From Candidatus Sungiibacteriota bacterium (GTDB lineage Bacteria; Patescibacteriota; Minisyncoccia; Sungbacterales; HO2-52-23), in contig CP066690.1 in the NCBI GenBank assembly GCA_016432465.1, positions 250,702-314,701 of the forward strand: DNA of 64,000 nucleotides, read 5' to 3'. The position numbers and the translations under genes are program-made. Numbering within the stretch: the first letter of the stretch is position 1; the number at the start of each line of letters is the position of its first letter. The notes under the pieces are model-generated. The model was not told the DNA's origin. It saw only the letters and a list, made by a program, of their open reading frames with translations, and searched no databases. Positions 3,220 through 44,024 of the stretch are shown here, one piece after another.

Positions 3220-3286
3220 AGCGAGTTTTAAATTGCAACTGATAAATTTTCATGATACGTTATTAATACTCGCAGAAGGCGCAGGG

Positions 3287-3333
3287 GGGCGTTTAGCCCC
3301 GACGCCTCGACTTTACGTCGGGGGTCGGGGCCT
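3287..3333. repeat. REP-like palindromic element (family GCCCCGACGCC..CGACTTTAC..CGGGGGTCGGGGC), copy 1
   Basis: near-identical copies at 4650-4725 and 28941-29000; two adjacent GC hairpins. Confidence 0.6.
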
Positions 3334-3465: not shown

Positions 3466-3487
3466 ATTTCAAAGGTAGGAGGGTGAA

Positions 3488-3542
3488 GCAGAGCGTTACA
3501 TTGACATTGTAAGGGTCGCAGGTTCAATCCTTGCAACGCCCA
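3488..3542 (+). pseudogene. tRNA-Val(GAC) 3' fragment (half D-arm, anticodon arm, T-arm, 3' acceptor; no 5' acceptor strand)
   Basis: GCAGAGCG-TTACA-TTGACAT-TGTAA-GGGTCGCAGGTTCAATCCTTGCAACGCCCA parallels the adjacent tRNA-Val, but no complementary 5' acceptor strand exists upstream. Confidence 0.5.
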
Positions 3543-3583: not shown

Positions 3584-4156
3584 TCATCGTGATTTTTGTT
3601 TTCTTTTTTTGAATAAAAATTCTTTTCTCAAAATCCACCGCCCATCTCTTCTTTGAACACAAAGATTAACCCCGTCAACAGTAAAAGTTCTTGTATATCG
3701 AAAACCTTTTAATTCTTTTTTATATCGTTGGATGTTTCGTTCCGTATCTTTGGAGAGGGTTATGTGCGGGTTGTATTTTGAAAAAGCCCAATATGTGCTT
3801 CGAGCCCCCATCCGATGTTTTTTCTGGACAAGCTTTTTAAGTAAGCTGTGAAGCCTTTGTAATTTTGCGGGACAACTTGATTTTGCGAAAAGAACTCTGT
3901 TATCAAACCAGCCCAGTCCATCAATTCGCATTCGAAATGGTCCGAACTCCTCAAGGCAGAGCGTGATATCTTTTATCAGCGGTATCAAGCCTGCTCGTAA
4001 AACAAATGGCGGAACAAGAGTAATATGTGCGGATGAATGCGAAATTCCACTCGGATTATATTTTTTGCGGTAACCATCAAGTTCAAGAACTATGTTTTTG
4101 GGGATTCTCACGGTAATTAGTAAACGCATTTTGTTTTCCTTTTTTAGCCTTTTCAA
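3584..4156 (-). CDS. 2H phosphoesterase superfamily protein (LigT/ThpR-like RNA 2',3'-cyclic phosphodiesterase)
   Basis: two H-x-T-x motifs (HITLVPPF and HITLSKD) spaced as in the LigT family; about 180 aa. Confidence 0.7.
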   Translation of the reverse strand: MKRLKKENKMRLLITVRIPKNIVLELDGYRKKYNPSGISHSSAHITLVPPFVLRAGLIPLIKDITLCLEEFGPFRMRIDGLGWFDNRVLFAKSSCPAKLQRLHSLLKKLVQKKHRMGARSTYWAFSKYNPHITLSKDTERNIQRYKKELKGFRYTRTFTVDGVNLCVQRRDGRWILRKEFLFKKRKQKSR

Positions 4157-4301: not shown

Positions 4302-4658
4302 ATGCAAAAATCCGAACATGTACCATCTGAAGAAAACAGAGAAGAACCGACGCTCGAGAAACTTGATCGCGCGCTGGAAGAAGAAGAAGAACATCTTAAA
4401 GAATTCCCAAACCACGGAATCCATTTGGGAACTATGGAATTGCTGCATATCTCCAAACACTCCCCCGAACTTAGTAAATTTTTTGCCGATGCCGAAGAGA
4501 TATTAGAGCTTGACACTACGACAGCAGCACGGCTTAGAGATCTTGAAGAAAAATATTTAGCCTGTGTCATTACAGGGAAAGAAATTAAGGAGCTGGAAGA
4601 AAGATTTTTACATCCCTACTATCAAAAACTACAAAGGGAGAAAAGTGGGGGTGTTTAG
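4302..4658 (+). CDS. hypothetical acidic protein
   Basis: 118-aa ORF rich in E/K (LEEEEEHLKEF); the 3' end and stop codon lie inside REP-like copy 2. Confidence 0.35.
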   Translation: MQKSEHVPSEENREEPTLEKLDRALEEEEEHLKEFPNHGIHLGTMELLHISKHSPELSKFFADAEEILELDTTTAARLRDLEEKYLACVITGKEIKELEERFLHPYYQKLQREKSGGV

Positions 4659-4725
4659 CCCCGACGCCCCGACTTTACTCGGGGGTCGGGGCCCCGACCG
4701 CAAGGCGCGTCGGGGTTTAACCCTC
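4650..4725. repeat. REP-like palindromic element, copy 2
   Basis: GTTTAGCCCCGACGCCCCGACTTTACTCGGGGGTCGGGGCCCCGACC; same family as 3287 and 28941. Confidence 0.6.
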
Positions 4726-4809
4726 CCATCAATGAACAGGTTCGCTACGAAACAGAGTTTTTAGACGACCTCTTGGTAAAACGTCATTTATTCACTCCGT
4801 TAGATTTAT

Positions 4810-4839
4810 GGGTGCTTAGCTCAGTGGTAGAGTGTCTCG
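4810..4839 (+). pseudogene. tRNA 5' fragment (acceptor 5' strand, D-arm and 5' half of anticodon stem only)
   Basis: GGGTGCTTAGCTCAGTGGTAGAGTGTCTCG has no matching 3' half; flanked by direct repeats of CGT(CA)TTTATTCAC(C/T)CCGTTAGA. Confidence 0.45.
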
Positions 4840-4866
4840 TTTATTCACCCCGTTAGAAATCAAGCT

Positions 4867-4938
4867 GGGCAGTTAGTTCAATGGCAGAACGTCTGTTTTA
4901 CACACAGAAGGTTGTAGGTTCGATTCCTACACTGCCCA
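4867..4938 (+). tRNA. tRNA-Val (anticodon TAC)
   Basis: acceptor GGGCAGT/ACTGCCC, anticodon stem TCTGT/ACAGA with loop TTTACAC, T-arm GTAGG-TTCGATT-CCTAC; flanked by complementary CCCCGTTAGAAAT / ATTTCTAACGGGG. Confidence 0.75.
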
Positions 4939-4984
4939 AATTTCTAACGGGGCAGGCCGAGAAGAGCGGGGGTTCGAATCCCAT

Positions 4985-5040
4985 CATCTTCTTAGACAGA
5001 ACAAAATTCTCCCTTGCGGGGAATTTTGTTCTGTCTTAAA
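4985..5040. repeat. long perfect hairpin (16-bp stem AGACAGAACAAAATTC / GAATTTTGTTCTGTCT)
   Basis: read directly; lies in the 700-bp non-coding tRNA/repeat region. Confidence 0.5.
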
Positions 5041-5274: not shown

Positions 5275-5366
5275 CGGCGGCGGGCATTCCGCCCCCCAAC
5301 CCCCTCCTGCCGCGCCGTCCTCGCTCTGTCTCTTGACTCAATCGCTTTAGTTTGCTAAAGTGGCGG
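5275..5366. repeat. left copy of a ~90-bp inverted repeat carrying a promoter-like TTGACT-N17-TAAAGT
   Basis: reverse complement of 7311-7400 with 1-2 mismatches over about 85 bp; the inner edge abuts the GTG start at 5368. Confidence 0.7.
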
Positions 5367-5367
5367 T

Positions 5368-6480: not shown

Positions 6481-7317
6481 TCACGCAAGGCTGTTTTTCT
6501 TTTCTCCAAACAAAAAGGCTTCTTCACCAACTTTTTCTCGGTTTCGGGCAAAAAGAATAACGGCGGCTTTCTCGGCTCTTATTTCTTGGGTTCCATCTAC
6601 TCCGATAACTTGTCCTTTCGACATTTCTTCAAAATCATCAAACGATTTTGTAAGAATAAATTTGTTGGTTTTTGTTTTGTACAAATCGTACATTCGTATA
6701 TACGATTGTTTTTGTGGCATTAGATCATTTGCAATGTGGTCACGAGCCTTAAGAAATGCGAAAATACTTTTTTCTGCAATCTGTTCTGATTGAGGATTGC
6801 CGAGAAAGCCGCACTCAATGCAAATCCCTATTTTGCCGATACTATTCATGTAGTAGTCGGTGCCGCCAGGCTCTATTTGATCAAAGCCGGACGCAATGCG
6901 TTCAACTGGCAAATACTTAATAATCCCTGTTGCATTTGCTTCGCAAATAACAAAAGGTTTGCTCGTCGACGTGCGACTCGCGTGTATATCCAAAAGTGCT
7001 TCGGCTTTATTCAAATAGGTTTTTAGAAATTGAGCGCGACTATATTCATAACTCTCTTTTTCCTTTTCTGAAAATTGTTCATTGCGATTGAACATTCTAT
7101 TTAGATTGGCCCCTACATATCGCTTATTAGCTTCAACCGCTCGTGGGTTTCCATAGCCAAATAAAACTACCCCGCGCTCAATTTCGAGGGTTGGTAAAAT
7201 TTTTTCCAATGCTTCCAGTCCACATTTTTCATCACCATGCACGCCAACCAGAACGATACTTGTCGTTCCTTTTTCTCGGCCAGTGATTTTAATAATTTCT
7301 TCAAACATTACCGCCAC
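6481..7317 (-). CDS. succinylglutamate desuccinylase / aspartoacylase (AstE/AspA) family zinc hydrolase
   Basis: VHGDEKCG (HGxE zinc-binding motif) near the N-terminus; 278 aa. Confidence 0.7.
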   Translation of the reverse strand: MAVMFEEIIKITGREKGTTSIVLVGVHGDEKCGLEALEKILPTLEIERGVVLFGYGNPRAVEANKRYVGANLNRMFNRNEQFSEKEKESYEYSRAQFLKTYLNKAEALLDIHASRTSTSKPFVICEANATGIIKYLPVERIASGFDQIEPGGTDYYMNSIGKIGICIECGFLGNPQSEQIAEKSIFAFLKARDHIANDLMPQKQSYIRMYDLYKTKTNKFILTKSFDDFEEMSKGQVIGVDGTQEIRAEKAAVILFARNREKVGEEAFLFGEKKNSLA

Positions 7318-7400
7318 TTTAGCAAACTAAAGCGATTGAGTCAAGAGGCAGAGCGAGGACGGCGCGGCAGGAGGGGGTTGGGGGGCGGAATGCCGCGCCG
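7311..7400. repeat. right copy of the ~90-bp inverted repeat (same promoter-like sequence, reading leftwards into the AstE-like gene)
   Basis: ACCGCCACTTTAGCAAACTAAAGCGATTGAGTCAAGAGGCAGAGCGAGGACGGCGCGGCAGGAGGGGGTTGGGGGGCGGAATGCC is the reverse complement of 5275-5366. Confidence 0.7.
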
Positions 7401-8457: not shown

Positions 8458-9357
8458 GTGATAAAACGCATTCTAGCCCTTGTTCTTTTACTTTTTGCGG
8501 CCGGAGCCGGTCCCAGCTTCGCACTTCCGGATATTTTATATACCTATGCCGCTGGTCAGGGTGATAAGTCTGAAAAAAATCCTTCTCTAGCCGGCTTTGG
8601 CGGGCGAGCGTTAACGCTTTGTGTGGAAAAAACGGATCAGAAACTTAATGACATGTCGGTGCGAGATATATCTGACTTGTATAATGAGCGGAGAGTAACC
8701 CTGCCTGACCAGAAAATGCCCGGTTTTGTACGAAACGCCTGCCAACGGGGTCTTCAAGATTTTTTTGGTGAGCTTGAATTTGTAAAAGATATTGCCCGGT
8801 GGCTTGATAGAAACCTTAAATATCTTGTACGAGACCAGCTGGTTATCAGAAAAGATGACGGGAGAACAGATGTGCTTCTGGCGCCGAGCTCTAAAGAACT
8901 TCGGCAACCAACCAGATTTCAGGCAAGATTTAAATTCGGCGTTGACACTGACGGACACAAAATACAAGAGAATAGTTTGGACGGAATAATCACCCCGTCC
9001 TTCAAGTTGAATCTGAACTATGAGAAAGTGGAGTTTAAGCTTCGGCTAAATCCCGTACGACAAACGCTAAACGCCACCTTCGGCCTTGACCATTATCTCT
9101 TTGGGGCTTTGCGTCCTAACCTTGAATACAAAATACGACCCCATGAAGATAATCGCCAAATTTTTGAGATTGGATTTCTGGTTAAACCTGTCCTACCGGA
9201 AGTTGATGTCAGAATGATTACCCAAATTGTTCCCGAAAGACCATCGCATAATCACTTCTCCGGAGTTGGTTTGGTTTGGAAGCTTGACCACTGGGAGTGT
9301 TGGATTGCTCCCTCCTCCTGTCCAAATAAATCCCCCCACCTTCCCACGGGGTTTTGA
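8458..9357 (+). CDS. secreted hypothetical protein (signal peptide); C-terminal ~10 codons and stop supplied by a MITE copy
   Basis: N-terminal MIKRILALVLLLFAAGAGPSFA signal-like segment; the ORF reads into the repeat at 9327. Confidence 0.5.
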   Translation: MIKRILALVLLLFAAGAGPSFALPDILYTYAAGQGDKSEKNPSLAGFGGRALTLCVEKTDQKLNDMSVRDISDLYNERRVTLPDQKMPGFVRNACQRGLQDFFGELEFVKDIARWLDRNLKYLVRDQLVIRKDDGRTDVLLAPSSKELRQPTRFQARFKFGVDTDGHKIQENSLDGIITPSFKLNLNYEKVEFKLRLNPVRQTLNATFGLDHYLFGALRPNLEYKIRPHEDNRQIFEIGFLVKPVLPEVDVRMITQIVPERPSHNHFSGVGLVWKLDHWECWIAPSSCPNKSPHLPTGF

Positions 9358-9436
9358 ACCCTGCGGGAAGGATTTATACGGCACCCATTCATCCCCGCAG
9401 CAAACTGCGGGGTCTTCTAGGAGGGTGGGGGGATAA
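9327..9436. mobile_element. MITE-like palindromic element with TIR ATCCCCCCACCTTCCCA, copy 1
   Basis: terminal inverted repeats AAATCCCCCCACCTTCCC ... GGAGGGTGGGGGGAT; homologous to 38199-38326, 49238-49366, 51536-51643 and 62838-62892. Confidence 0.7.
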
Positions 9437-9525
9437 ATAGTCATCATGATAACATCCGTGCCTCTGGCGCGGATTTAAGTTGAAATAAATTAAAAATCAT
9501 GATATTCTGTCAGACATAACCTTGG

Positions 9526-9616
9526 GGTGGGATGCCAGAGTCCGGTTGAATGGGCCGCACTCGAAATGCGGTATCCCGCTTTAGCGGGATCGGGGGTTCA
9601 AATCCCTCTCCCACCG
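9526..9616 (+). tRNA. tRNA-Ser (anticodon CGA), type II
   Basis: acceptor GGTGGGA/TCCCACC, anticodon stem CCGCA/TGCGG with loop CTCGAAA, long variable arm TATCCCGCTTTAGCGGGATC, T-arm GGGGG-TTCAAAT-CCCTC; terminator-like hairpin follows at 9622-9660. Confidence 0.75.
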
Positions 9617-9672
9617 ACTGTGGAAACTTTGAGACAGTTTTTTGAACTTGTCTCAAGGTTTTCACTAAACCT

Positions 9673-10125
9673 ATGAATATATTTTTTGTTATAGCTATTT
9701 TTGCGCTTACCGGAGTGATTGTACTGGGCTGGTTTTTTTACGACTTAAGAAAAAAGGTGCTGTTGCTTTTTGGGGGTAAAGAAACCAAGAGCGGGACGGA
9801 AACACTACAGGAGCTTGTGCGACGGGTAACCAAAACCGAGATAAAAATAGAAGAGCTTGAACCGCGACTAAAATTGACAGAAGAAATCTCGCAAATCAGC
9901 GTGCAGAAAGTCGGATTTTTGCGATTTAATCCCTTTCAGGATACGGGCGGAGATAACAGTTTTGTGGTGGTTATGCTTGATCGTGAAAATAACGGCATCG
10001 TAATCTCCTCACTTTATATGCGCGAAGGGGTACGGATTTATGCCAAAAAAGTTGAGAGAGGAAAAACCCAACAACCCTTGTCGGGAGAGGAGAAAAGGGT
10101 TCTCGAGGAAGCGATCAAAAAATAA
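9673..10125 (+). CDS. membrane-anchored hypothetical protein (resembles DUF4446 family)
   Basis: N-terminal TM helix; central RFNPFQDTGGDNSF motif that I recall from DUF4446; sits immediately upstream of infB. Confidence 0.45.
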   Translation: MNIFFVIAIFALTGVIVLGWFFYDLRKKVLLLFGGKETKSGTETLQELVRRVTKTEIKIEELEPRLKLTEEISQISVQKVGFLRFNPFQDTGGDNSFVVVMLDRENNGIVISSLYMREGVRIYAKKVERGKTQQPLSGEEKRVLEEAIKK

Positions 10126-10127
10126 CC

Positions 10128-11636
10128 ATGAAGAAAAACGAAACCGAAAACCAAAATAGACGACCGCCCGTGGTCGTAGTAATGGGTCATATTGATCATG
10201 GAAAAACAAAGATTCTGGATTGGTACCGACAAACAAAAGTAGTTGAGGAGGAATCCGGCGGAATAACCCAGCATATCGGCGCCTATGAAGTTGAGCACAA
10301 CGGCAAAAGGGTCACCTTTATTGACACGCCAGGACACGAGGCATTTTCCAAAATGCGCTCGCGTGGCGCCCGGGTCGCTGATCTTGCAATTCTGGTCGTG
10401 GCGGCGGAGGAAGGAGTGAAACCGCAAACCAAAGAAGCCATAGAAATCATAAAAGAAAATAAACTTCCTTTTGTTGTTGCCCTAAACAAAATTGATAGGC
10501 CGGAAGCAAATCCTGAACGGGTAAAACAGGACCTTGCCAAAGAAGAAGTATTGGTTGAGTCTTACGGCGGTAAGATTCCTGCGGTTGAGGTGAGCGCCAA
10601 AACCGGACAGGGCATGGAGGAGCTTCTGGAGGTTTTACTTCTTGCTTCGGAACTTGAAGAGTTATCAGCCAATCCGGAAAAATTAGCCGAGGGAGTTGTA
10701 ATTGAAGCGCACCGCGACCCCAAACGAGGCGTCACCTCCACCCTTCTTGTACGGGACGGAACCTTAAAAAAACAAAACGTGCTTGTTGTCGGACGGTCAG
10801 TGGAAACAATTAAAATTCTGGAAGATTTTCGCGGTCAACCCGCCAGCGAAGTTTTACCCTCCTCACCGGTTTTAGTTTCCGGACTTTCCCAAATGCCTGC
10901 CGTGGGTGATTCTTTCCGGGCATTTGGAAACCGGGGCGCAGCAGAGAAATACGTCCAAGCGCTGCCCGAAGAAGAAATAAAAGCAAAACCAATTTACTTA
11001 CACGTGGAAGGCGAGGAAAAACCCATCTTTAACATTATCCTTAAGGCTGATGTAGCAGGGTCAAAAGAAGTGCTGGAGGAAGAACTTAAAAAAATTCAAT
11101 CCGATGCGGTGGGAATCAATATTATCCGGAGTGAAGTCGGCGACGTAAACGAGTCGGATGCCAAGCTGGCGATCGCCACCAAACTTGTAACCATCATAGG
11201 ATTTAAGGTTAAAATTGACGCCTCCGCCCGGGATCTTATCAAAGACGCCAATATTCACACGGTGATGGGCGAAATAATTTATGAGGTTTTGGACGAGGTG
11301 AAAAAACGGATTACAGAAATAATACCGCCCGAAATAAAACGCGTGGATATTGGACGAGCCAAGATTTTGAAATTATTCAAGAAAGATGGAAATAAACAGA
11401 TCGTGGGCGGACGGATTGAAGAGGGCGCTATACGCAAGGAAACACCGGTTGAAATTCAAAGAGACAAAAACATTGTTGGCGGGGGCCGTATACTTCAGCT
11501 GCAGCATAACAAAGTAGACGTGGCCGAGGTGGAAAAAGGGTCGGAGTTCGGCGCGCTTATTGACTCCCCTCTTACTATTCAGGAAGGAGACGTACTAATT
11601 ATTTATACCGAGGAAACAACGCAACGTGCCGTCTGA
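10128..11636 (+). CDS. infB: translation initiation factor IF-2 (short form lacking the long N-terminal region)
   Basis: GTPase motifs VVVVMGHIDHGKT, DTPGHEAF and NKID; C-terminal beta-barrel domains; followed by rbfA. Confidence 0.95.
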   Translation: MKKNETENQNRRPPVVVVMGHIDHGKTKILDWYRQTKVVEEESGGITQHIGAYEVEHNGKRVTFIDTPGHEAFSKMRSRGARVADLAILVVAAEEGVKPQTKEAIEIIKENKLPFVVALNKIDRPEANPERVKQDLAKEEVLVESYGGKIPAVEVSAKTGQGMEELLEVLLLASELEELSANPEKLAEGVVIEAHRDPKRGVTSTLLVRDGTLKKQNVLVVGRSVETIKILEDFRGQPASEVLPSSPVLVSGLSQMPAVGDSFRAFGNRGAAEKYVQALPEEEIKAKPIYLHVEGEEKPIFNIILKADVAGSKEVLEEELKKIQSDAVGINIIRSEVGDVNESDAKLAIATKLVTIIGFKVKIDASARDLIKDANIHTVMGEIIYEVLDEVKKRITEIIPPEIKRVDIGRAKILKLFKKDGNKQIVGGRIEEGAIRKETPVEIQRDKNIVGGGRILQLQHNKVDVAEVEKGSEFGALIDSPLTIQEGDVLIIYTEETTQRAV

Positions 11637-11976
11637 AAGAAAGGTAGAAAAACTAAATGACCTTCTGCAGGAAGAACTTTCCCAAATTTTGGAACGCGAA
11701 GTTGAGTTTCCGGAAAATACTTTTGTGACAATTACGCGCGTGGCGGTATCTCCGGACCGCCAGTACGCAACAATATTTATTTCTGTATATGGCGGCGCTG
11801 AACAAAGCATACTCGAAATTTTAGCTAAAAACATTTATAATATACAACAGAGAATAAACCGGACTCTACGTCAGCGGCCAATTCCAAAAATCAATTTTGA
11901 AATTGATAGGGAAGAAATACGGCGCGAGATAGTAGAAAAATCGCTGGCGGAACTGAAGCGGAAAAAAGAACTATAA
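11626..11976 (+). CDS. rbfA: ribosome-binding factor A
   Basis: 116 aa, KH-like RbfA pattern (RVxxLLQEELSxIL...VTITRVxxSxD); conserved infB-rbfA gene order. Confidence 0.8.
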   Translation: MPSERKVEKLNDLLQEELSQILEREVEFPENTFVTITRVAVSPDRQYATIFISVYGGAEQSILEILAKNIYNIQQRINRTLRQRPIPKINFEIDREEIRREIVEKSLAELKRKKEL

Positions 11977-12020
11977 CGGCGTTGTGGCTGACACGGGAGT
12001 CTGTCCCGCTGGTAGACGGC

Positions 12021-12093
12021 GGCGCGATGGCGAAGTAGCTAACGCAGCGGTCTGCAAAACCGCTATTCAGGGGTGCAAATCCCCTTCGCGCCT
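12021..12093 (+). tRNA. tRNA-Cys (anticodon GCA)
   Basis: acceptor GGCGCGA/TCGCGCC, anticodon stem GCGGT/ACCGC with loop CTGCAAA, T-arm AGGGG-TGCAAAT-CCCCT; flanked by complementary GGTAGACGGC / GCCGCCGTCTACC. Confidence 0.7.
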
Positions 12094-12099: not shown

Positions 12100-12310
12100 G
12101 CCGTCTACCTACGGGATTGCGATTTGTTGCCAAAATTTCTTCTCCCGACTGGTCGGGATCGAAATTTTGGACAAATCGGGAACAAAACTCCTATACGCGG
12201 GCTGACGCCAATTGCTTGGCGTCAGCGGGAAATTTAGCGAGCCGGGCGGGCCAGTGCGAGCGTTAAGAATTTCCCAGGGGTTTCGCTGACGAAAGCGAAA
12301 CCAATTCCCG
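12100..12310 (+). ncRNA. conserved structured element, copy A
   Basis: GGGAAATTTAGCGAGCCGGGCGGGCCAGTGCGAGCGTTAAGAATTTCCC hairpin followed by GTTTCGCT-GACGAA-AGCGAAAC hairpin; same architecture as copies B, C and D. Confidence 0.4.
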
Positions 12311-12361: not shown

Positions 12362-12446
12362 GCCCGGGTGGTGGAATCGGTAGACACTAGGGACTTAAAA
12401 TCCCTTGGAGGCAAACTCCGTGCGAGTTCGAGTCTCGCCCCGGGCA
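12362..12446 (+). tRNA. tRNA-Leu (anticodon TAA), type II
   Basis: acceptor GCCCGGG/CCCGGGC, anticodon stem AGGGA/TCCCT with loop CTTAAAA, variable arm TGGAGGCAAACTCCG, T-arm GCGAG-TTCGAGT-CTCGC. Confidence 0.8.
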
Positions 12447-12509
12447 TAACGAGACTTACCCTGCACCACGTAGGGTGCAGGGTACCCAGCACTCAACGTA
12501 GTGCTGGGT

Positions 12510-12559
12510 AAAATCCCTTGGAGGCAAACTCCGTGCGAGTTCGAGTCTCGCCCCGGGCA
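12510..12559 (+). pseudogene. partial duplicate of the tRNA-Leu(TAA) 3' 50 nt, preceded by two 9-bp-stem hairpins
   Basis: AAAATCCCTTGGAGGCAAACTCCGTGCGAGTTCGAGTCTCGCCCCGGGCA is identical to the 3' portion of the upstream tRNA; no 5' half. Confidence 0.65.
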
Positions 12560-12707: not shown

Positions 12708-13151
12708 TTATGCCCTAGCGACACTTGCAAGAGATTCGGTTACACCATACTTACGACATGTTTCTTGAATAGATACGGTATAATCGTTGATCTCTTTTTC
12801 TACGAATTCAACAGAAAAAGATGTGCCCCTAAAAGTTACATTGAAACCAGAAGCCAATAATCTCTTGTATGTTTCGAGGGCTTCTTTCACTGCTTCTCTT
12901 TCAGCTTTTGCTTTACCTACAACGGTCGTGTAAAGGTCTCCAGATCTAGCGTGGACAAATTCTGCTAATTTTAGTTTCATCTCACCCGCCTCAATAAAAA
13001 CCATGGCATGGTAGTTTGGAAGCCCAAACATATTGTCGTCGTCATATGATTCATAGCAAATTTGGACATCTTTCAGTCCTTGTTTTTGACATTTTGAGAT
13101 AAACTCACCCAACGTAGTAGGTCTGCCAAGTAGCTTGTCAAATAGCGACAT
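12708..13151 (-). CDS. hypothetical protein (147 aa) inside a tRNA-Leu-bounded mini-island
   Basis: clean ORF between tRNA-Leu 3'-end direct repeats at 12510-12559 and 13301-13326. Confidence 0.45.
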   Translation of the reverse strand: MSLFDKLLGRPTTLGEFISKCQKQGLKDVQICYESYDDDNMFGLPNYHAMVFIEAGEMKLKLAEFVHARSGDLYTTVVGKAKAEREAVKEALETYKRLLASGFNVTFRGTSFSVEFVEKEINDYTVSIQETCRKYGVTESLASVARA

Positions 13152-13300
13152 TTTCCGCCTCCTTTGTTAAACTGCACAGTCCTTGAGACTGCTCTGCTAT
13201 TATATTAGTTTATTAAAAGTCTGTCAAGTTTTGCAAAAATTTGCCAAAAGATTTAAGAGAAGAGGATACTTAAGAAAAACACCAGAAACAAAACAGACTT

Positions 13301-13326
13301 CCGTGCGAGTTCGGGTCTCGCCCCGG
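13301..13326 (+). pseudogene. second degenerate copy of the tRNA-Leu 3' end (att-like direct repeat)
   Basis: CCGTGCGAGTTCGGGTCTCGCCCCGG, one mismatch against the tRNA-Leu T-arm/acceptor. Confidence 0.5.
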
Positions 13327-20505: not shown

Positions 20506-20737
20506 AGTTAAAATGCTTAACGAAGTTAAAGAGTTGCGGCCAGCGGTAATCGAAACCGCGTCTGTTCCTTGGCAAGGAACCGTTCTACCACTAAACCATG
20601 GCCGCAAATAATAATGTATGCCGGAGGTCGGAATCGTCCCGCACAAATTGCTGCGCAATTTAACGGGGTTGCTGTTTGTTGCCAAAATTTTATCGCAGGT
20701 GCTCAAAATTTTGGACAAACAGGGAAAACTCCCGACG

Positions 20738-20775
20738 CCAGCCTCTTCGGGGCAGCACTCTACTTCACCCCGCCA
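20738..20775 (-). pseudogene. partial duplicate of the tRNA-Phe anticodon-arm/D-arm region
   Basis: GCCTCTTCGGGGCAGCACTCTAC versus GCCTCTTCAGGGCAGCGCTCTAC in the adjacent gene. Confidence 0.5.
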
Positions 20776-22383: not shown

Positions 22384-22602
22384 TTACCGCAGAGATTACC
22401 GGTTTTTCAGGAGTCCGATAATGCTTTTAGTATAGCATATTAGGAGCTATAAGTCAAGCAAACAAAAAAATCAGCATTTCTGCTGTTTCTTGGCCTAAAT
22501 CTTATAAATTCTATGATTAAAAGTTTTTCTTTTCTTCTTTCAAAATCGCCAATTCGTTTTTCTTGTCCGCCAAAGGCGGATCTGCCTTTGGCATGAGGCG
22601 GC

Positions 22603-23574
22603 TTAATTAGTTCTTTGCCAACTTTCGCCAGCGTTTGAACTTCGATAGATTATACCATCTTCACTAGAAACAGTAAGTTCTTCAGAATTTTTAGAATTGA
22701 TGGCAATAGCAGTAATCTTGATACCATTAAGACCGTCGAGTTTTTTCCAGTTTTGTCCAGCATCAGTTGTTTTCCAAGCCCCAGCTTGCGTGCCCGCATA
22801 CATAATAGTTAAATCTTTATGAAGAGTGGCGAGCGTATAAACTGTTGTGTTGTCAAAAACATTCGTTGTTTTTGTCCAGCCGCAAAAACAACTAAAAGAT
22901 TGGGAAACGCCGTCAGCCGTTCCCGCCAAGAGGAGACCCCAATTATCCCAGCCCATAGATTTATCCATCGAAGTTTGTACCGCCATGTATACAAACGACC
23001 TTACCCCGGGATTCTCTGGTCCGTCATCCATACGCTTCCACGAAACGCCGCCGTCTTTACTTTTGAACACCCCATTATCAACAGAGTAGGCAAAAAGTAA
23101 ATCGGGATTACGTTGATTAACCGTCAAGCCATGAATATCCGTACCCTTTATTCCCTCATCAGAACGCATCCAGGTAATACCATCGTCAATACTTTTTATG
23201 ACACCTAAATCATGCCCACCGGCAAAAATTGTTTTCTGGTTTCGGGGGTCAACCACAATACTCATCCAATCATCAGCGTTGATACTTCCTTTTACCGAAA
23301 CCTTTTGCCAAGTTTTGCCGTCATTGTTGCTCTTGAATAGTCCGCCATGTGTTCCTAAAAGTAGATTTCCCCTTGAGTCATAGGTAATGGCATGGATATG
23401 TTGAGCCACGGGTATTACAGAATTACTAGAACCACTTTTATCACTATGAGACATTACGGTTTTCTTGGCCGAAATATCCCCTAGAGTATTGGTAGACTTA
23501 TTACTTATTCCCAAAAAATAACCAACGGCTATGGCACCAATAATAAAAACCGGAATTAATAGTTTATTATTCAT
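22603..23574 (-). CDS. BNR/Asp-box repeat protein (sialidase-fold, Ycf48-like), membrane-anchored
   Basis: five S-x-D-x-G-x-T/S-W motifs (SNNDGKTWQ, SIDDGITWM, SKDGGVSWK, TTDAGQNWK, SSNAGESWQ); start taken at MNNKLLIPVF, ATG at 23574. Confidence 0.65.
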   Translation of the reverse strand: MNNKLLIPVFIIGAIAVGYFLGISNKSTNTLGDISAKKTVMSHSDKSGSSNSVIPVAQHIHAITYDSRGNLLLGTHGGLFKSNNDGKTWQKVSVKGSINADDWMSIVVDPRNQKTIFAGGHDLGVIKSIDDGITWMRSDEGIKGTDIHGLTVNQRNPDLLFAYSVDNGVFKSKDGGVSWKRMDDGPENPGVRSFVYMAVQTSMDKSMGWDNWGLLLAGTADGVSQSFSCFCGWTKTTNVFDNTTVYTLATLHKDLTIMYAGTQAGAWKTTDAGQNWKKLDGLNGIKITAIAINSKNSEELTVSSEDGIIYRSSNAGESWQRTN

Positions 23575-28940: not shown

Positions 28941-29009
28941 TGTCCGCTCCGACGCCCTGCGGGGTCGGAGCCCCGACCTCCGACGTAAAACCGGAGCGTC
29001 GGGGTTGAA
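28941..29009. repeat. REP-like element copy 3 plus a 13-nt duplicate of the tRNA-Arg 5' end (GAACTATGGGGGC)
   Basis: GCTCCGACGCCCTGCGGGGTCGGAGCCCCGACCTCCGACGTAAAACCGGAGCGTCGGGG, then TTGAACTATGGGGGC repeated from 28920. Confidence 0.55.
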
Positions 29010-29021
29010 CTATGGGGGCTC

Positions 29022-30577: not shown

Positions 30578-30649
30578 GGTGTCCAGAGGGAATCGAACCC
30601 TCGTAGCCGCCTCCACAGGGCGGAGCTCTACCACTAAGCTATGGACACC
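30578..30649 (-). tRNA. tRNA-His (anticodon GTG) with encoded G-1
   Basis: G-1 followed by acceptor GTGTCCA/TGGACAC and C73, anticodon stem CCGCC/GGCGG with loop CTGTGGA, T-arm GAGGG-TTCGATT-CCCTC. Confidence 0.8.
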
Positions 30650-31128
30650 GTAAGTCTTTCCTTCTCCGTATTGTAATGATGAACCAGAAAATGGCAATTG
30701 TGGCACAACCAACACAAGTTTTTCAGCTTATTATTTTTACGGTTTTGGTCAAAGTGATGAACTACTAGGACCTGTAAATCTCTTTGACAACATAATCTAC
30801 AAACCGGCGGAATCCTACTGCGCAGCAGCATATTTTTATACGCATTTTCTCCGTGCCGCCAGTTGGCATGACTTGATCCGGTAAAAGTTGAGTGTCTCCA
30901 CTTCAGTTGACAAGCCCTACTGCAAAAATACTTTTTACTTTTAGACCTATTAAGAAATCTCTTTTGCCTATAAATCTTTTTTCGGCACAGAAAACAGGCC
31001 ACAATTCTTCCATTCTTTCTGCTCCGACGCTCGCATACCAATGAGCAGTATTTACCCCATCCCTTCTTAAGCCAGTGCGGTTTGGCATAAAAAGGCTTTT
31101 TACACAGCCTACAATTTACTTGCGGCAC
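30634..31128 (-). CDS. HNH endonuclease with N-terminal zinc-ribbons (paralog 1)
   Basis: HNH motif LVVHHFDQNRKNNKLKNLCWLCHNCH; CxxC pairs N-terminal. Confidence 0.7.
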   Translation of the reverse strand: MPQVNCRLCKKPFYAKPHWLKKGWGKYCSLVCERRSRKNGRIVACFLCRKKIYRQKRFLNRSKSKKYFCSRACQLKWRHSTFTGSSHANWRHGENAYKNMLLRSRIPPVCRLCCQRDLQVLVVHHFDQNRKNNKLKNLCWLCHNCHFLVHHYNTEKERLTVSIA

Positions 31129-31693
31129 GATTGATTACGTTTAGTATTGTATTACGATGAAGCACAGTGTGACAATTATGGCAGAGCCACATTAAATTAC
31201 TTATCCTATTATTCAGGTGATTACGGTCTTTATGGTGCACGACCAGTACACGTTTGTCAGTAATCTTGCAGAAACTGCATACTTCTTCTTTTGATGCTCG
31301 TCTCAAAAAGGCGCGGTAGGAGCCGCTAGAAAAACCGCCCCTCCAGTTTAAATGCCTTGGTCCGATGTACTGCAGCGTATTACGCCAGATTGTTTGACAC
31401 GATTTGTTACAAAAATATTTCTTGCTTTTTGATTTTTGTAAATCCGCCCTTGATCTATAAATTGATTTTCCGCACAAAAAGCACGCAAGTATTTTTCCTG
31501 TTTTCTGCCCCTCGTTTTTACACTTCAGTGAACAGTACTTGCCCCAGCCGGCCCTTCTAAAGGAGGGTCGCACATAGAATCTGGATTTACAAACCCTACA
31601 CCGAGTAGCCTGCATGTAACTATAGTATAGACGCAAAGAATGAAAATGGCAAACAGGGGGCTTCAGGTTATCCACAACCTCTCGTGATAACAA
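31109..31693 (-). CDS. HNH endonuclease with N-terminal zinc-ribbons (paralog 2)
   Basis: HNH motif LVVHHKDRNHLNNRISNLMWLCHNCH; same architecture as 30634-31128; the start is probably the internal MQATRC. Confidence 0.7.
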   Translation of the reverse strand: MLSREVVDNLKPPVCHFHSLRLYYSYMQATRCRVCKSRFYVRPSFRRAGWGKYCSLKCKNEGQKTGKILACFLCGKSIYRSRADLQKSKSKKYFCNKSCQTIWRNTLQYIGPRHLNWRGGFSSGSYRAFLRRASKEEVCSFCKITDKRVLVVHHKDRNHLNNRISNLMWLCHNCHTVLHRNTILNVINRAASKL

Positions 31694-33098: not shown

Positions 33099-33396
33099 CC
33101 GCTTCCCGCAAATTCTCAGCCAGAGGCTGATTCGCCTTTGACGGAAAATAGGGTTCGAGTCCCGATGGCAAGCCACCGAGGATCCTCGACAAAGTCGGGA
33201 TCGGTGTTTTTCTCTGGGTTTTTCTATTGTTCCTATACTTTAACTTCTGCGGCGATAGTCGCCTCTTTCCTTTTTCATAAAAATATCGGCGATCTCGGAC
33301 GCAACGAGATACGTCTCATGGGAGACGAAACATCTTTTTAACTCGCGATATGGACAGTAATTTTTGATTCTTCGGGTCAGCCAGCGCTTCGGCCAA

Positions 33397-37707: not shown

Positions 37708-38422
37708 GAAGCGCCGTAGTTGAGGTTAAACTAATAGAGCTTGTAAATTTGGGGCGGGCATAACTTACTTCAACGGTCATACGGACTGCTTCCCGCCCCA
37801 ACCCCTGCGACAAACGTTCCAACCGGAATTTATTAATTTTTACGGAGGCGGCAGAAATGGGAATGGCGGACTGCCCCTCTTGACGCAGCCAAAGCCTGCC
37901 GTTATCAACATAATAATCAACGTAGGCCGCGGCGTGCCCAGCCTGAACCCCAACAACCGTTATCAAAGAAAGCTGGCCGGAATCAATGTTAAAACGGCTC
38001 GTGGGAGAATAAATCTCTCCTGATTGGGCCAGTGACTTGGTTATCGTTTCCAGTAGCAGGCGGCCGTTGGAAAGAACTTCCCGTTCGGCCCGCGCCCGAT
38101 AATAAGCGTTAACCGTATTTATGAAAGAATTCACCACAAAAACAAGAAGCAGGCCCAAAAGCGCCACATAGATTATTATCTCAATAAGGGTAAGCCCTTT
38201 ATCCCCCCACCTTCCCAGAATACCCGCAGCTTGGGAAGTCAGACTTCCCTTGCTGCGGGGATGAATGGGCGCCGTAGAAATCCTTCCCGCGGGGTCCAAT
38301 ACCCCGCTGGGAAGGTGGGGGGATTTATTTTGGCGGTTAATCCTGATCATAGATTTTAAATCCAAAGTCATATTGATCCAGAAGCTGTCCGGAATCACTG
38401 GGGTTAGAAAGCCGACCAACAT
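37694..38422 (-). CDS. type IV pseudopilin (prepilin-type N-terminus KG|LTLIEIIIYVALLGLL) with MITE-derived 5' extension
   Basis: class III signal motif G-LTLIE with E at +5; the roughly 55 codons upstream of the motif lie within MITE copy 2. Confidence 0.6.
   Translation of the reverse strand: MLVGFLTPVIPDSFWINMTLDLKSMIRINRQNKSPHLPSGVLDPAGRISTAPIHPRSKGSLTSQAAGILGRWGDKGLTLIEIIIYVALLGLLLVFVVNSFINTVNAYYRARAEREVLSNGRLLLETITKSLAQSGEIYSPTSRFNIDSGQLSLITVVGVQAGHAAAYVDYYVDNGRLWLRQEGQSAIPISAASVKINKFRLERLSQGLGREAVRMTVEVSYARPKFTSSISLTSTTALRGNY
38199..38326. mobile_element. MITE-like palindromic element, copy 2 (full length, about 128 bp)
   Basis: ATCCCCCCACCTTCCCAGAATACCCGCAGC...GCTGGGAAGGTGGGGGGAT. 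Confidence 0.7.
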
Positions 38423-39368
38423 ATCTACGAGCTACTCCGCCCGGATAGGGACTTGACGCTGTTTGCTTGTAACCCCAGTAAATCGTTCCTGTTGATCCGG
38501 AAAGCGCATCGGTTGAAGATGGAATGCTGCGCAGCCTTATAAAATAGGTGGTTGAGGGGTTAAGAGAAACCAGATCCGGAAAACGGAAAGGCACCCAAGA
38601 CAAGGTACTACTGGCAATCGTTGGTGAAGTTACGATATTGGAAGTTCCGAGCACCACACCAGTAGGACTTGGCCGCAGTTCCGCATAAATATCGGACGGG
38701 GACGCAGTTACCCTCCGTAAAAAAAGCTCAACTTTGGTTACCTGCAGAGATGAACTCAAGGTGGTAAAAGATTGCGCCGGATCTCCGTTGCCTGAATTAC
38801 CCGACGGAAAATTTGGCAGATCCCCATCCGTAGTCGCATCCTCAAAAGACATCACCTTGCTCTCCTGCGGCGGAGACAAAGATGCCTGAAAATTGGCAAT
38901 ATAGGTTACGAGTTCCACCGTAGATGTGGCCGATGCTTTTTTCCACTCCACGCGCGCAATTGCCTTACGCGTGGACGCGTCAGAAGTTCCGGACGAAGAT
39001 ATACGATCTTGCGCATCACGAAATACTTCTGACAATACTACATACCGATAGTACCTATTGTTAATAAGGGCAGCGGGCGGAGTGGAGCTAAACGTCCACT
39101 TGCCGTTGGTAATTGAGGGATAATAAGACGTGGAGTTGGCCAGTACGGCGATGTTGGAACTCCACGACTCATCACGCACGGAACGAACCGCTTCCAGCGC
39201 CTCTTCGGCAAGCAATGTTGCTTCCAGATTTTCTTTTTCATTGCGCAATAAACGCACGGCCATAATCCCGACCTGTGCAAATCCAAAAAGCGCTACCGTG
39301 ATTACCGCGGTTACAACTATAATCTCAATCACGCCAAATCCTTGTTTTAAACGGCGAACATATTTCAT
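38337..39368 (-). CDS. type IV pseudopilin (MKYVRRLKQGFGVIEIIVV)
   Basis: prepilin motif G-FGVIE followed by a hydrophobic helix; start taken at MKYV. Confidence 0.6.
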   Translation of the reverse strand: MKYVRRLKQGFGVIEIIVVTAVITVALFGFAQVGIMAVRLLRNEKENLEATLLAEEALEAVRSVRDESWSSNIAVLANSTSYYPSITNGKWTFSSTPPAALINNRYYRYVVLSEVFRDAQDRISSSGTSDASTRKAIARVEWKKASATSTVELVTYIANFQASLSPPQESKVMSFEDATTDGDLPNFPSGNSGNGDPAQSFTTLSSSLQVTKVELFLRRVTASPSDIYAELRPSPTGVVLGTSNIVTSPTIASSTLSWVPFRFPDLVSLNPSTTYFIRLRSIPSSTDALSGSTGTIYWGYKQTASSPYPGGVARRYVGRLSNPSDSGQLLDQYDFGFKIYDQD

Positions 39369-40210
39369 GGTTCGCTCATCACGCCTCCAAAAGCGCCGAC
39401 CGTGACTGTTTGACAATCCGCCCCATAGGTCGCGATCTCGCGCGTGTCAATTGATAACTTTAGTTTTTTATTGTTTTTGCGGCAGTCCCTATCAATATGA
39501 AGAGTCGTATTGGTGTCGCTAATTGAAACTGCATGTATACGTAGCGTCTGATTTTGTCCGCCAACCACAATCGTACCTGTCCAATCAAAAATAGTGCGGG
39601 GCGGTGCGGGAGTCATAGTTATGGTAGAAACCGTATCTGGATTGGGCGGATCAAAAAACACAAGAGTCGCCGCCACTGAATTCTTAATGCTCCACCCGAG
39701 CCCAAAAGAACGATGCCGCGCATCCGCAATACGACTTCCCAGCGCCGCCGGAACACTGCCTGTCTGGTAGGTCTTGCCCGACCCCTCAACAGTAACTGAA
39801 AAAGTATTGGCAGAAACAGATGCTGTACGCAAGTCAAAACCGCCGCTCTGGTCGGTAGCTCCGCTTATTTTTTTAAAAACAATTTCCTGTCCGCCTCCGG
39901 CAAGGACAATGTTGGCAACTTCAATGCCAGAAGGCAGAGCGTGAACTTCGGTCAAGGTTGATCCGGAAAAAGATGCCCCGCGAAAAAGAGTAAATTGATT
40001 TTGTTCTAGTTTAACTCCCCATGGCGAATTATCCTCGCCGCCCAAGGCCCTTGCTTGAGCAAAACGAAGTATGGATAAAACATTTCCTCCGGCAGTGGTA
40101 AGGTCGCGCACTCGGCGCGAGTTTGTAAAAGACACCAAACTCACCGCGCCTAAAAGAGCGAGGATGGCAACGGATACAACAACTTCCAATAAGGTAATGC
40201 CGCGGCGCAT
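39365..40210 (-). CDS. type IV pseudopilin (MRRGITLLEVVVSVAILALL)
   Basis: canonical prepilin N-terminus G-ITLLE. Confidence 0.7.
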   Translation of the reverse strand: MRRGITLLEVVVSVAILALLGAVSLVSFTNSRRVRDLTTAGGNVLSILRFAQARALGGEDNSPWGVKLEQNQFTLFRGASFSGSTLTEVHALPSGIEVANIVLAGGGQEIVFKKISGATDQSGGFDLRTASVSANTFSVTVEGSGKTYQTGSVPAALGSRIADARHRSFGLGWSIKNSVAATLVFFDPPNPDTVSTITMTPAPPRTIFDWTGTIVVGGQNQTLRIHAVSISDTNTTLHIDRDCRKNNKKLKLSIDTREIATYGADCQTVTVGAFGGVMSEP

Positions 40211-41835: not shown

Positions 41836-41849
41836 ATTTTGTGGAAATT

Positions 41850-41896
41850 TTGAGGTGGTTCTTTAGAATTATCTCAAAATTTCCACTGATTAGATG
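41850..41896 (+). terminator. terminator-like perfect hairpin (14-bp stem GTGGAAATTTTGAG..CTCAAAATTTCCAC)
   Basis: read directly downstream of tRNA-Ser. Confidence 0.5.
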
Positions 41897-44023: not shown

Positions 44024-44024
44024 T

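Follow-up and report, generated by a model that had tools for sequence, protein, structure and literature searches.

Complete tRNA genes between palindromic arms within split cognate tRNA genes: apparent homing-type replacement cassettes in a Candidatus Sungiibacteriota bacterium and other members of the candidate phyla radiation

Why are a few of the tRNA genes in a bacterial genome framed by palindromes, and what are the fragments of tRNA that lie beside them? The question is raised by a 64,000-nucleotide stretch of Candidatus Sungiibacteriota bacterium DNA (GenBank CP066690.1, positions 250,702 to 314,701; hereafter the window, meaning the whole 64-kb stretch analysed), which belongs to a cellular bacterium of the candidate phyla radiation (CPR) with genes including serA, IF-2, RecG and FtsH, as well as three Pup-ligase paralogues and a proteasomal ATPase. 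The nearest RecG beyond the source organism is 68% identical. The window contains 16 scattered tRNA genes, on which ARAGORN and Rfam agree, and by inspection none of the 16 encodes its CCA. A first-pass annotation had counted 15 and described leader/trailer palindromes around five of them, namely Val-TAC, Cys, Ser-TGA, Arg-GCG and a TAT tRNA (Ile-TAT); the five palindromes lie where it placed them. These palindromes are the edges of small cassettes of ~100-130 bp, each comprised of a 5' arm, a complete tRNA and a 3' arm, some of which also contain hairpins and a small GIY-YIG gene. The resident tRNA gene is reduced to decaying 5' and 3' pseudo-halves outside the arms, with the cassette tRNA as the sole intact copy. 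The best explanation overall, to which a probability of roughly 0.6 may be given, is that these are homing-type tRNA-replacement cassettes situated in the loop-coding positions of cognate tRNA genes.

The arms were compared with 3000 random window positions of tRNA-like spacing. A perfect complement of at least 10 nt occurred in no more than 0.3% of these controls, and four arm pairs, those of Val-TAC (13 bp), Cys (10 bp), Arg-GCG (12 bp) and Ile-TAT (18 bp), lie beyond at least 99.7% of them. Duplex energies as low as those of Cys, Arg-GCG or Ile-TAT were found in 0.03% of controls, and the Val-TAC arms stand at the 0.13% level by stem length and at 0.8% by energy. The Ser-TGA arms are weaker, with 7 contiguous nt in the scan (8% level by length, 3% by energy), and form 8 bp exactly in register that continue the acceptor stem. 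By the same test the flank complementarity of the remaining 11 tRNAs is ordinary. The complementary flanks initially noticed are thereby borne out for all five genes, as is their predicted folding: with flanks included, each forms a cloverleaf with an extended stem (z-scores -5.0 to -8.2), and 0/200 shuffles of each folds as well as the native sequence. The continuous helix ranges from 15 bp (Ser-TGA) to 23 bp (Arg-GCG), and the helices of Val-TAC, Cys and Ile-TAT are broken by 1-11 unpaired nt. As terminal inverted repeats, the arms of cassettes span 8-18 bp at a spacing of 0-6 nt from the tRNA, and at least four unrelated arm sequences are found: C6ACCT, CCCCGTTAGA, GGTAGACGGC and GCCGGAGC. 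The Arg-GCG and Ile-TAT arms are of type A (Table 1). An origin of type-A arms in the variable loop and T stem of the target (ATAGGGG is duplicated at the Arg-GCG junction) was rejected as a general rule, because the same arms accompany insertions in D loops and anticodon loops.

Related Sungbacteria contigs, fetched through RecG homologues, display the same genes without cassettes. Arg-GCG, Ile-TAT and Ser-TGA are intact and unarmed in these relatives (L001-L003, L159, L160), whose flanks contain no complement longer than 8 nt, those present being AT-only; the breaks in the window fall at loop positions of conserved tRNA genes, and uninterrupted alleles of all three are available in L001-L003 and L159. 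Ile-TAT is syntenic beside FtsH in the relatives and Arg-GCG lies in the RecG neighbourhood, and L159 keeps the window's gene order of RecG, Pup ligases, ATPase and FtsH, with tRNA-Ile(TAT) near FtsH. The relatives are distant (RecG 60-64% identical), so the empty sites do not represent within-population polymorphism. With the orthologous tRNAs of relatives unarmed, the arms are no conserved processing signal.

Directly outside each arm pair, at all five loci, local alignment reveals tRNA sequence in colinear order, with 5' parts upstream and 3' parts downstream, and not the far-end 3' direct repeat of integrase islands. The anticodon of the outer gene is clearly that of the inner for Arg-GCG, Ile-TAT, Cys and Ser-TGA, and the breaks are located in the D loop (Ile-TAT), the anticodon loop (Val-TAC, Cys, Ser-TGA) or the T loop (Arg-GCG). 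Positions 1-52 of the outer Arg-GCG gene match the native tRNA-Arg of L002 at 40/52 and that of L001 at 41/52, while the outer 3' part with its preceding GGGG matches the L002 gene at 17/20; joined, the two parts are 75-76% identical to these native genes, between which the identity is 79%. The inner Arg-GCG reaches 64-67% identity with the native and outer genes, the outer gene aligning to it only locally (28/36), and is 82% identical to the tRNA of a type-A cassette in contig L135. The outer gene is therefore a resident that was split in its T loop; this broken gene is the vertical orthologue, and the working copy is from a different lineage.

The other loci present the same arrangement in different states of decay. 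The outer Ile-TAT gene has acceptor strands that are still complementary (GGGTGCG / CGCACCC) and an anticodon stem of 3 bp, and its remainder has a homologue in L002, a relic that follows the intact, unarmed tRNA-Ile(TAT) there, both being located beside FtsH. This relic bears a 65-75 nt palindromic insert between anticodon arm and variable loop (62897-63020, - strand; L002 12990-13180, - strand), and is ~80% conserved between window and L002 though their RecG proteins are only 64% identical; its acceptor strand differs at 3 positions, the window strand matching its own 5' strand, and the relic may have been functional for a long time. The closest relative, L161 (IF-2 81% identical), has an outer tRNA-Cys broken at the same point as that of the window, with intact acceptor strands GGCGTCG and CGACGCC, and holds a different inner tRNA-Cys with different spacers; the window inner tRNA-Cys is 96% identical to the L161 outer 5' part over 27 nt centred on the D arm. 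The T loop of the outer Cys 3' remnant in the window is occupied by a 24-nt palindrome. At Val-TAC, where the outer 5' half is broken in the anticodon loop, two upstream 5' halves are stacked, each ending in TTTATTCACyCCGTTAGA, and the CGAGA of the 3' remnant is the partner of the outer anticodon stem TCTCG; complementarity of its acceptor 3' strand has been lost.

The Ser-TGA locus (43596-44473) is doubly nested and includes two GIY-YIG nuclease genes (85-96 aa). Its order is 5' half, hairpin, ORF (open reading frame) 1, 5' half, hairpin, ORF 2, arm, tRNA and arm, after which come a third CTTG-plus-hairpin junction and the Ser 3' part, comprised of variable arm, T arm GCAGGTTCGACTCCTGC and acceptor strand ACCCACC. 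At its 3' end ORF 2 runs across the Ser-TGA 5' arm and 19 nt into the tRNA. Homologues of ORF 2 (60-68% identical) were surveyed in their own contigs, together with a family hidden Markov model run over the fetched loci, and all 8 of the 8 GIY-YIG loci outside the window present a cognate tRNA 5' part (positions 1 to ~23-37), the ORF and an intact tRNA. Two pairs are each a single element met in separate samples, so that these loci represent 6 distinct elements, and their tRNAs are Ser-TGA, Ser-CGA, Ala-CGC, Arg-TCG, Leu-TAA and Trp-CCA. The family profile is best matched by UPF0213 proteins EF2693 and BH0048 (E ~1e-10), followed by SLX1, a structure-specific nuclease (2e-5), and I-TevI (0.008), and the window proteins consist of the catalytic domain only, without the DNA-binding domain joined to it in I-TevI and the Seg proteins.

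The double hairpin of this locus (CCCGCCAGAGGCGGG / TCCGCCTTTGGCGGA) is a REP (repetitive extragenic palindromic)-like motif with six window copies, at 22564-22607, 33114-33157, 43630-43673, 43980-44023, 44395-44438 and 51017-51060, three of them exactly at the 35/36 junction of tRNA-Ser halves. It occupies the same junction in the CPR contigs L154, L156 and L158, and the bare motif is also present in unrelated viral contigs, where its 5 matches are accompanied by neither tRNA nor GIY-YIG.

Cassettes of this kind are not confined to the window. A metagenome scan for C6ACCT/AGGTG6 arms, with a T loop required between them, yielded 19 loci, all 19 with an intact tRNA and together covering 13 anticodons; the arm consensus, C5-7ACCTTTTA / TAAAAGGTG5-7, is longer than the search pattern, and most of these cassettes are flanked by cognate tRNA halves. 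For the 23 cassettes from window, genomes and metagenomes, colinear order of the outer pieces beats swapped order in 23/23, and the cassette's own tRNA is the best match to the outer flanks among ~20 alternatives in 12/23. Beyond the anchored core, arms share a mean of 3.5 further complementary bases, versus 1.5 in cross-pairs, and their variants covary, as in TTATA/TATAA and ATTTTGGA/TCCAAAAT. The arm C6ACCTTTTA is conserved across distant CPR lineages, which is more than pure pairing would need. A scan of genome contigs for CCCCCACCT..AGGTGGGGG, made with no tRNA constraint, listed mostly unrelated REP-like palindromes from other phyla, and among the matches listed are a Doudnabacteria contig (L033) and a Saccharibacteria contig (L063) in which a tRNA-Thr(TGT) lies between type-A arms. 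L063 is a four-layer nest: each upstream Thr 5' half ends in ..TTTTG, after position 35, and is followed by an arm, mirrored 3' halves lie downstream with acceptor strands perfectly complementary layer by layer, and one of the layers uses the CCCCGTTAGA motif of the window Val-TAC 5' arm. Contig L142 has two type-A layers and shares with L151 the same inner tRNA-Ile(GAT) (72/72) in the same arms, in flanks that are 71.6% identical and with outer halves that differ. The distribution is thus patchy among relatives, with cassette families common to several CPR lineages.

Several trivial or alternative sources could be set aside. An assembly artefact is ruled out by an independent assembly with identical sequence and by the same architecture in more than 25 independent contigs; the Logan short-read assembly SRR12113431, from the same organism, is 100% identical to window positions 9548-12057, a stretch that takes in the Cys 5' arm and the outer Cys fragment. 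That assembly breaks inside tRNA-Ser(CGA) and inside tRNA-Cys, as would be expected if repeated tRNA segments fragment assemblies; metagenome-assembled genomes built from short reads therefore probably contain too few of the nested tRNA loci. Retro-copying of mature tRNAs is ruled out because the inner tRNAs, except that of L135, have no encoded CCA. Viral contigs gave 0 matches to type-A cassettes and 10 to type-B arms, none with a tRNA, and a similarity search of window positions 40000-64000 against phage records returned a generic tRNA-Arg match only; these scans provide no evidence for a phage vector.

It is very probable that a cassette tRNA landed in a resident gene of the same anticodon, split it and took over its function. 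The cassette interior is a different tRNA each time (13 anticodons), situated in its cognate gene, and does not consist of dispersed copies of one sequence. The first-pass annotation had suggested that these tRNA genes were mobilised inside hairpin elements, in keeping with the tRNA fragments nearby, and was essentially right: the fragments are the two halves of a split resident cognate gene, and the idea now extends to recurrent nesting and to one locus with GIY-YIG genes in the insert. Because the insert recreates an intact target, the process can repeat, giving rise to nested, 'Russian-doll' loci.

Whether a nuclease drives the process is an evenly balanced matter. A UPF0213/Slx1-like GIY-YIG nuclease would cut the intact tRNA gene at the tip of a stem-loop (D, anticodon or T loop), and the break would be repaired by copying the cassette-bearing allele, with homology supplied by the donor's flanking tRNA halves, which would account for the cognate match of inner and outer tRNAs; where a cassette has no nuclease gene, mobilisation would occur in trans. 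With 0-6 nt between arm and tRNA there is no room for a cassette promoter, and the resident promoter therefore presumably drives transcription, which would run through the 5' pseudo-half. Once transcribed, the arms would pair and extend the acceptor stem, perhaps to clamp the new tRNA off from the competing homologous pseudo-halves, or they may represent a cis element that the nuclease recognises. Given their probable transcription and pairing, the arms may also affect processing. More broadly, there is perhaps one chance in two that CPR bacteria hold an undescribed selfish class that invades essential single-copy tRNA genes at stem-loop tips and survives by way of its complete cognate tRNA; the further proposal that this class exists as an autonomous form with a UPF0213/Slx1-like GIY-YIG nuclease and a ~110-bp non-autonomous form bounded by arms could, on the same footing, as readily be wrong as right.

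A number of observations weigh against homing-type replacement. The home genome is represented by the 64-kb window only. Four of the five armed window tRNAs are without a nearby nuclease ORF, as are most of the 19 metagenome cassettes, and we know of no cleavage specificity for such 85-aa catalytic-domain-only proteins. Precise homing needs no conserved palindromic arms, so the nuclease model alone leaves the arms unexplained; in silico, arm shuffling lowers the mean probability of the inner acceptor stem, and arm deletion often leaves that probability high. The stretch around the break is often missing (positions 28-54 in L136, the whole anticodon arm in L142 and L151), and such loss of target sequence fits imprecise joining better than clean homologous repair. 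The outer halves are 100% identical to the inner tRNA in L136 (27/27 and 18/18), L158 (36/36 and 19/19) and also L153, an identity that could come from local duplication or gene conversion as well. The outer gene at Val-TAC is Val-TAC-like or Ile-TAT-like, its identity being uncertain. Finally, the type-A arms share a 10-11 nt core, CCCCCCACCT, with a family resembling miniature inverted-repeat transposable elements (MITEs), and this shared core, along with the apparent target-site duplications of that family, makes a transposase route possible.

Such a route would make the arms the terminal inverted repeats of a MITE or transposon moved by a transposase, the cassettes MITEs with a captured tRNA, and the loop sites a target preference. 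The core of the Arg-GCG and Ile-TAT arms, CCCCCACCT, indeed occurs in 11 window copies against 0.42 expected, its sites being inverted partners or lying beside a degenerate partner; five sites are accounted for by a MITE-like element of ~115 nt whose terminal inverted repeats are ATCCCCCCACCTTCCCAG, two pairs lie on either side of the Arg-GCG and Ile-TAT tRNAs, and a related copy resides in another Patescibacteria genome (L084, 924-1036), among the genome-contig matches listed. That most cassettes have no nuclease gene would also suit this origin, which is nevertheless unlikely: by inspection no consistent target-site duplication or direct repeat is seen at cassette junctions, whereas the MITE-like copies lie between ATTTAT/ATAAAT-like repeats, at least four unrelated arm sequences are in use, neither a transposase nor an integrase was found among the neighbouring ORFs scanned, and a transposase leaves the cognate match of inner and outer tRNAs unexplained. 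The possibility that the flanks are parts of MITE and REP families, raised at the outset, holds for the core shared by the Arg-GCG and Ile-TAT arms and fails in that the arms are tRNA-specific, with a tRNA in 19/19 metagenome loci. A very improbable alternative is that the arms evolved in place as a pre-tRNA processing helix that an RNase III-like enzyme would cleave, much as happens in rRNA operons, with the fragments as unrelated debris. The five extended-stem folds described above (z -5 to -8, 23 continuous bp in Arg-GCG) and the covarying arm variants speak for pairing, and the arms, which abut the tRNA, are very probably transcribed; yet they are present on 5/16 tRNAs only, and the fragments are ordered cognate halves directly outside them. 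An RNase III-like route, the first suggestion made for these palindromes, is unsupported as the reason for the arms, given that the Arg-GCG, Ile-TAT and Ser-TGA genes of relatives are unarmed and that the arm sequence itself is conserved in distant CPR lineages.

The outer halves might also be functional exons, joined by way of the arm helix or acting as a two-piece tRNA once the inner tRNA is excised by RNase P and RNase Z, so that one locus would give rise to two tRNAs. Insertion at D, anticodon and T loops resembles that of non-canonical archaeal tRNA introns, in their GC-rich complementarity the arms are reminiscent of the split tRNAs of Nanoarchaeum, the acceptor strands of outer genes often pair without a mismatch (window Ile-TAT, L144, L151 and layers 1-3 of L063), and a LigT-type RNA ligase gene lies at 3584-4156. 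Such an intron-like or split arrangement is hardly credible, however, where outer genes are without essential parts (the anticodon arm in L142 and L151, positions 28-54 in L136), where the 3' half is degenerate (window Val-TAC) or where the anticodon stem has 3 bp (window Ile-TAT); removal of the insert leaves an outer tRNA that in most cases is defective, with the anticodon arm missing or stems degenerate, the acceptor and T stems being perfect in a few. The outer tRNA would moreover be redundant with the inner one, Rfam finds no intron ribozyme in the window at gathering score or E up to 5, and to our knowledge bacteria have no bulge-helix-bulge (BHB) splicing endonuclease. It is likewise very unlikely that no mobility is involved at all, nests having arisen locally at palindromes and cloverleaf-forming DNA, through slippage or template switching, and their copies having stayed alike through gene conversion. 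The perfect identity of outer and inner sequence in L136 and L158 is what local copying would produce, but the inner and outer Arg-GCG genes are of different lineages, L161 and the window share an outer tRNA-Cys with different inner genes, an identical cassette resides in two diverged genomes, arm families are conserved across distant CPR lineages, and nuclease genes are embedded in nests.

How does this arrangement relate to known inhabitants of tRNA genes? Islands and prophages in tRNA genes reportedly fall into sublocation classes at the anticodon loop, the T loop and the 3' end, as set out by Williams in 2002. Like the cassettes, integrase islands have loop targets, restore an intact gene with the tRNA sequence that they carry, and leave fragments behind; they differ in measuring kilobases, in encoding an integrase and in restoring the 3' part only, with one direct repeat, whereas a cassette is an insert of ~100-400 bp with a complete tRNA between inverted arms and displaces both halves of its target. 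SegB of the phage T4 tRNA cluster, a free-standing GIY-YIG homing endonuclease among tRNA genes, recognises a T-psi-C stem-loop motif, cuts alleles that are without SegB and is co-inherited with neighbouring tRNA genes (PMC2330249). The likeness lies in a GIY-YIG gene among tRNA genes. SegB is, however, a phage protein with a 27-bp sequence-specific site, in contrast to the UPF0213/Slx1-like proteins of 85-96 aa, catalytic domain only, in a cellular genome; T4 shows no split resident tRNA genes, nesting or palindromic arms, and its tRNAs are neighbours of the nuclease gene, while the replacement here sits inside the target. Group I introns, some with an HNH homing endonuclease, interrupt tRNA genes of Patescibacteria at position 35/36 (PMC13011429; bioRxiv 10.1101/2025.07.03.662931), in an account that mentions no GIY-YIG, pseudogenes, duplication or nesting. 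They occur in the same bacterial group and at the same point as the Ser-TGA and Thr-TGT nests, but their ribozyme restores the tRNA at the RNA level, whereas cassettes provide a second complete tRNA gene at the DNA level.

Disrupted tRNAs in Archaea bear insertions at D, anticodon and T loops, and have halves that the BHB endonuclease and a ligase join. Among such disrupted archaeal genes are both split tRNAs and those with non-canonical introns (PMC4390854, PMC4033280). Loop insertion and GC-rich complementary sequences beside tRNA halves are common to the archaeal systems and the cassettes, but archaeal halves are functional, whereas those of cassette loci are decaying pseudogenes and the insert is the working tRNA. 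Pairing of leader and trailer is known from yeast pre-tRNAs, and bacterial RNase III stems of rRNA extend a terminal helix. Such processing stems are conserved features of their genes, in contrast to cassette arms, which are absent from orthologues and are part of the inserted element. Full-text literature searches, with most subscription journals outside their coverage, turned up no account of a tRNA gene nested within its cognate. The palindromes are the outermost sign of a wider and apparently undescribed phenomenon, probably one of homing-type selfish elements.

Table 1. Positions in the window of the arms, inner tRNAs, outer tRNA pieces and associated elements.
Locus	Feature	Position	Strand	Basis or remark
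Val-TAC	Oldest tRNA 5' fragment, ..GGTAAAACGTCATTTATTCACTCCGTTAGATTTAT	4774-4809	+	Junction TTTATTCACyCCGTTAGA, same as next layer
Val-TAC	Outer 5' half: acceptor GGGTGCT, D arm, anticodon stem TCTCG, loop start TTTA	4810-4847	+	
Val-TAC	5' arm CCCCGTTAGAAAT	4848-4860	+	Complement scan, RNA folding
Val-TAC	Intact inner tRNA-Val(TAC)	4867-4938	+	ARAGORN, Rfam
Val-TAC	3' arm ATTTCTAACGGGG	4940-4952	+	Complement scan, RNA folding
Val-TAC	Degenerate outer 3' remnant: CGAGA and T-arm-like GGGGGTTCGAATCCC	4958-4992	+	
Cys	Outer tRNA-Cys 5' fragment, broken after ..GTCTG	11976-12003	+	Homologous to L161 outer tRNA-Cys
Cys	Extra pairing, CCCG with CGGG	12005-12008 with 12112-12115	+	
Cys	5' arm GGTAGACGGC	12011-12020	+	Complement scan, RNA folding
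Cys	Intact inner tRNA-Cys(GCA)	12021-12093	+	ARAGORN, Rfam
Cys	3' arm GCCGTCTACC	12100-12109	+	Complement scan, RNA folding
Cys	Outer 3' remnant ..AAAACTCCTATACGCGGG..	12184-12240	+	Matches L161 outer 3' part AAAACCCCCATACGCGGGTGCAATTCCCGCCGACGCC
Ser-TGA	tRNA-Ser 5' half no. 1, ending ..GGTCTTG	43596-43631	+	Break between anticodon positions 35 and 36
Ser-TGA	Junction double hairpin CCCGCCAGAGGCGGG / TCCGCCTTTGGCGGA and A run	43632-43667; repeats 43982-44017, 44397-44432	+	
Ser-TGA	GIY-YIG ORF no. 1, 85 aa	43672-43929	+	PF01541, E = 4.7e-12
Ser-TGA	tRNA-Ser 5' half no. 2, ending ..GGTCTTG	43946-43981	+	
Ser-TGA	GIY-YIG ORF no. 2, 96 aa (NCBI: 103-aa GIY-YIG nuclease family protein)	44025-44315	+	PF01541, E = 2.2e-11
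Ser-TGA	5' arm GCCGGAGC	44286-44293	+	Complement scan, RNA folding
Ser-TGA	Intact tRNA-Ser(TGA)	44294-44380	+	ARAGORN, Rfam
Ser-TGA	3' arm CTCCGGC	44381-44387	+	Reads GCTCCGGC with discriminator G (44380)
Ser-TGA	3' relic: TCTGTCTTG, same double hairpin, tRNA-Ser 3' part	44388-44473	+	
Arg-GCG	Outer (resident) tRNA-Arg(GCG) positions 1-52	46843-46894	+	Broken at T stem/loop
Arg-GCG	5' arm CCCCCCACCTAT, type A	46899-46910	+	Complement scan, RNA folding
Arg-GCG	Intact inner tRNA-Arg(GCG)	46913-46985	+	ARAGORN, Rfam
Arg-GCG	3' arm ATAGGTGGGGGG	46987-46998	+	Complement scan
Arg-GCG	Outer 3' part TGAAATTCCTCTCGAGCACG: rest of T loop, T stem, acceptor 3' strand	46999-47018	+	
Ile-TAT	Outer (resident) 5' part GGGTGCGTAGCTCGGCTTGT	63160-63179	-	Broken in D loop
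Ile-TAT	5' arm CCCCCACCTATTTTGGAC, 18 bp, type A	63141-63158	-	Complement scan, RNA folding
Ile-TAT	Intact inner tRNA-Ile(TAT)	63066-63137	-	ARAGORN, Rfam
Ile-TAT	3' arm GTCCAAAATAGGTGGGGG, 18 bp	63037-63054	-	Complement scan
Ile-TAT	Outer remainder: D-stem 3' strand, anticodon arm with loop CTTATAA, palindromic insert of ~75 nt, T arm, acceptor CGCACCC	62897-63036	-	
MITE-like family	Copies	9324-9440, 38198-38330, 49235-49372, 51530-51646, 62836-62891		Between ATTTAT/ATAAAT-like repeats

Fragments of tRNA genes are found beyond the five armed loci, with about 10 of the 16 window tRNAs adjoining cognate fragments. The 3' half of tRNA-Leu(TAA) (12362-12446), from the anticodon onward, is repeated with 100% identity at 12509-12559, 63 nt downstream after two hairpins, and again at 13300-13326, after an ORF with no Pfam match (12708-13151); the arrangement is either the mirror image of that at Ser or a classical integrase-type scar. 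Val-GAC is followed, after a degenerate AGGTAGGAGGGTGAA arm, by a three-quarter pseudo-copy (3481-3542), GGCGGGGTGAA is succeeded by an anticodon-arm fragment of Phe (20735-20763), Arg-CCT has a repeat of its first 15 nt upstream (29005-29019), and the 3' end of Ser-GCT has a downstream repeat together with an inverted copy that forms a 47-nt palindrome (42096-42112; 41816-41911). Two tandem HNH-like ORFs (30634-31128 and 31109-31693, - strand; phrog_1271, E = 3e-13; Pfam HNH_3 weak) immediately precede tRNA-His (30578-30648), the proximal one overlapping its 5' end, a layout that mirrors the two GIY-YIG ORFs before tRNA-Ser; a search around these ORFs found no tRNA-His fragments. Upstream of both Val tRNAs is a hairpin element, GGGGGCGTTTAGCCCCGACGCC..GGGGTCGGGGCC (3285-3332, 4647-4694), whose first 11 nt resemble a tRNA start (acceptor and D stem), and a similar CCCGAC..GTCGGG hairpin is located in the D loop of the outer tRNA-Arg of L138. 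The 2'-5' RNA ligase/LigT-family gene mentioned above (- strand; PF13563, E = 3e-19) lies between the two Val tRNA loci.

Other repeats and genes complete the picture of the window. Two inverted MITE-like copies bracket RecG (49432-51537), and an 85-nt inverted repeat, 99% complementary (5283-5367, 7310-7394), brackets 1.9 kb bearing GNAT-like acetyltransferase and AstE/AspA-family ORFs, a segment that could be invertible or composite. A perfect 62-nt direct repeat (40214-40275 and 40452-40513, 238 nt apart) is found at the end of ORF 39365-40210 and in the start region of ORF 40451-41686. The Pup-proteasome-type cluster (53016-62201) is comprised of the three Pup-ligase-family paralogues, an ORF with no Pfam match (54619-56268) and an Mpa/ARC-like AAA ATPase, and is conserved in the related Sungbacteria L001 and L159.

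If the cassettes are what they appear to be, horizontal turnover would replace the tRNA genes of reduced genomes one at a time, and the essential tRNA genes of the smallest bacterial genomes would not be stable vertical markers, having been repeatedly overwritten by mobile copies. Phylogenies based on tRNAs would be affected, as would readings of codon usage and the annotation of genomes, the last because tRNA finders are misled, and assemblies broken, by pseudo-halves and nested genes. The nuclease for tRNA-gene stem-loops and the ~110-bp self-contained tRNA expression cassettes would be of practical interest, and the widespread small UPF0213/Slx1-like GIY-YIG orphan family would gain its first proposed, testable function. 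Besides self-splicing, as practised by introns and inteins, and the end restoration of islands, the provision of a whole spare copy would give mobile elements a third means of persisting within an essential gene.

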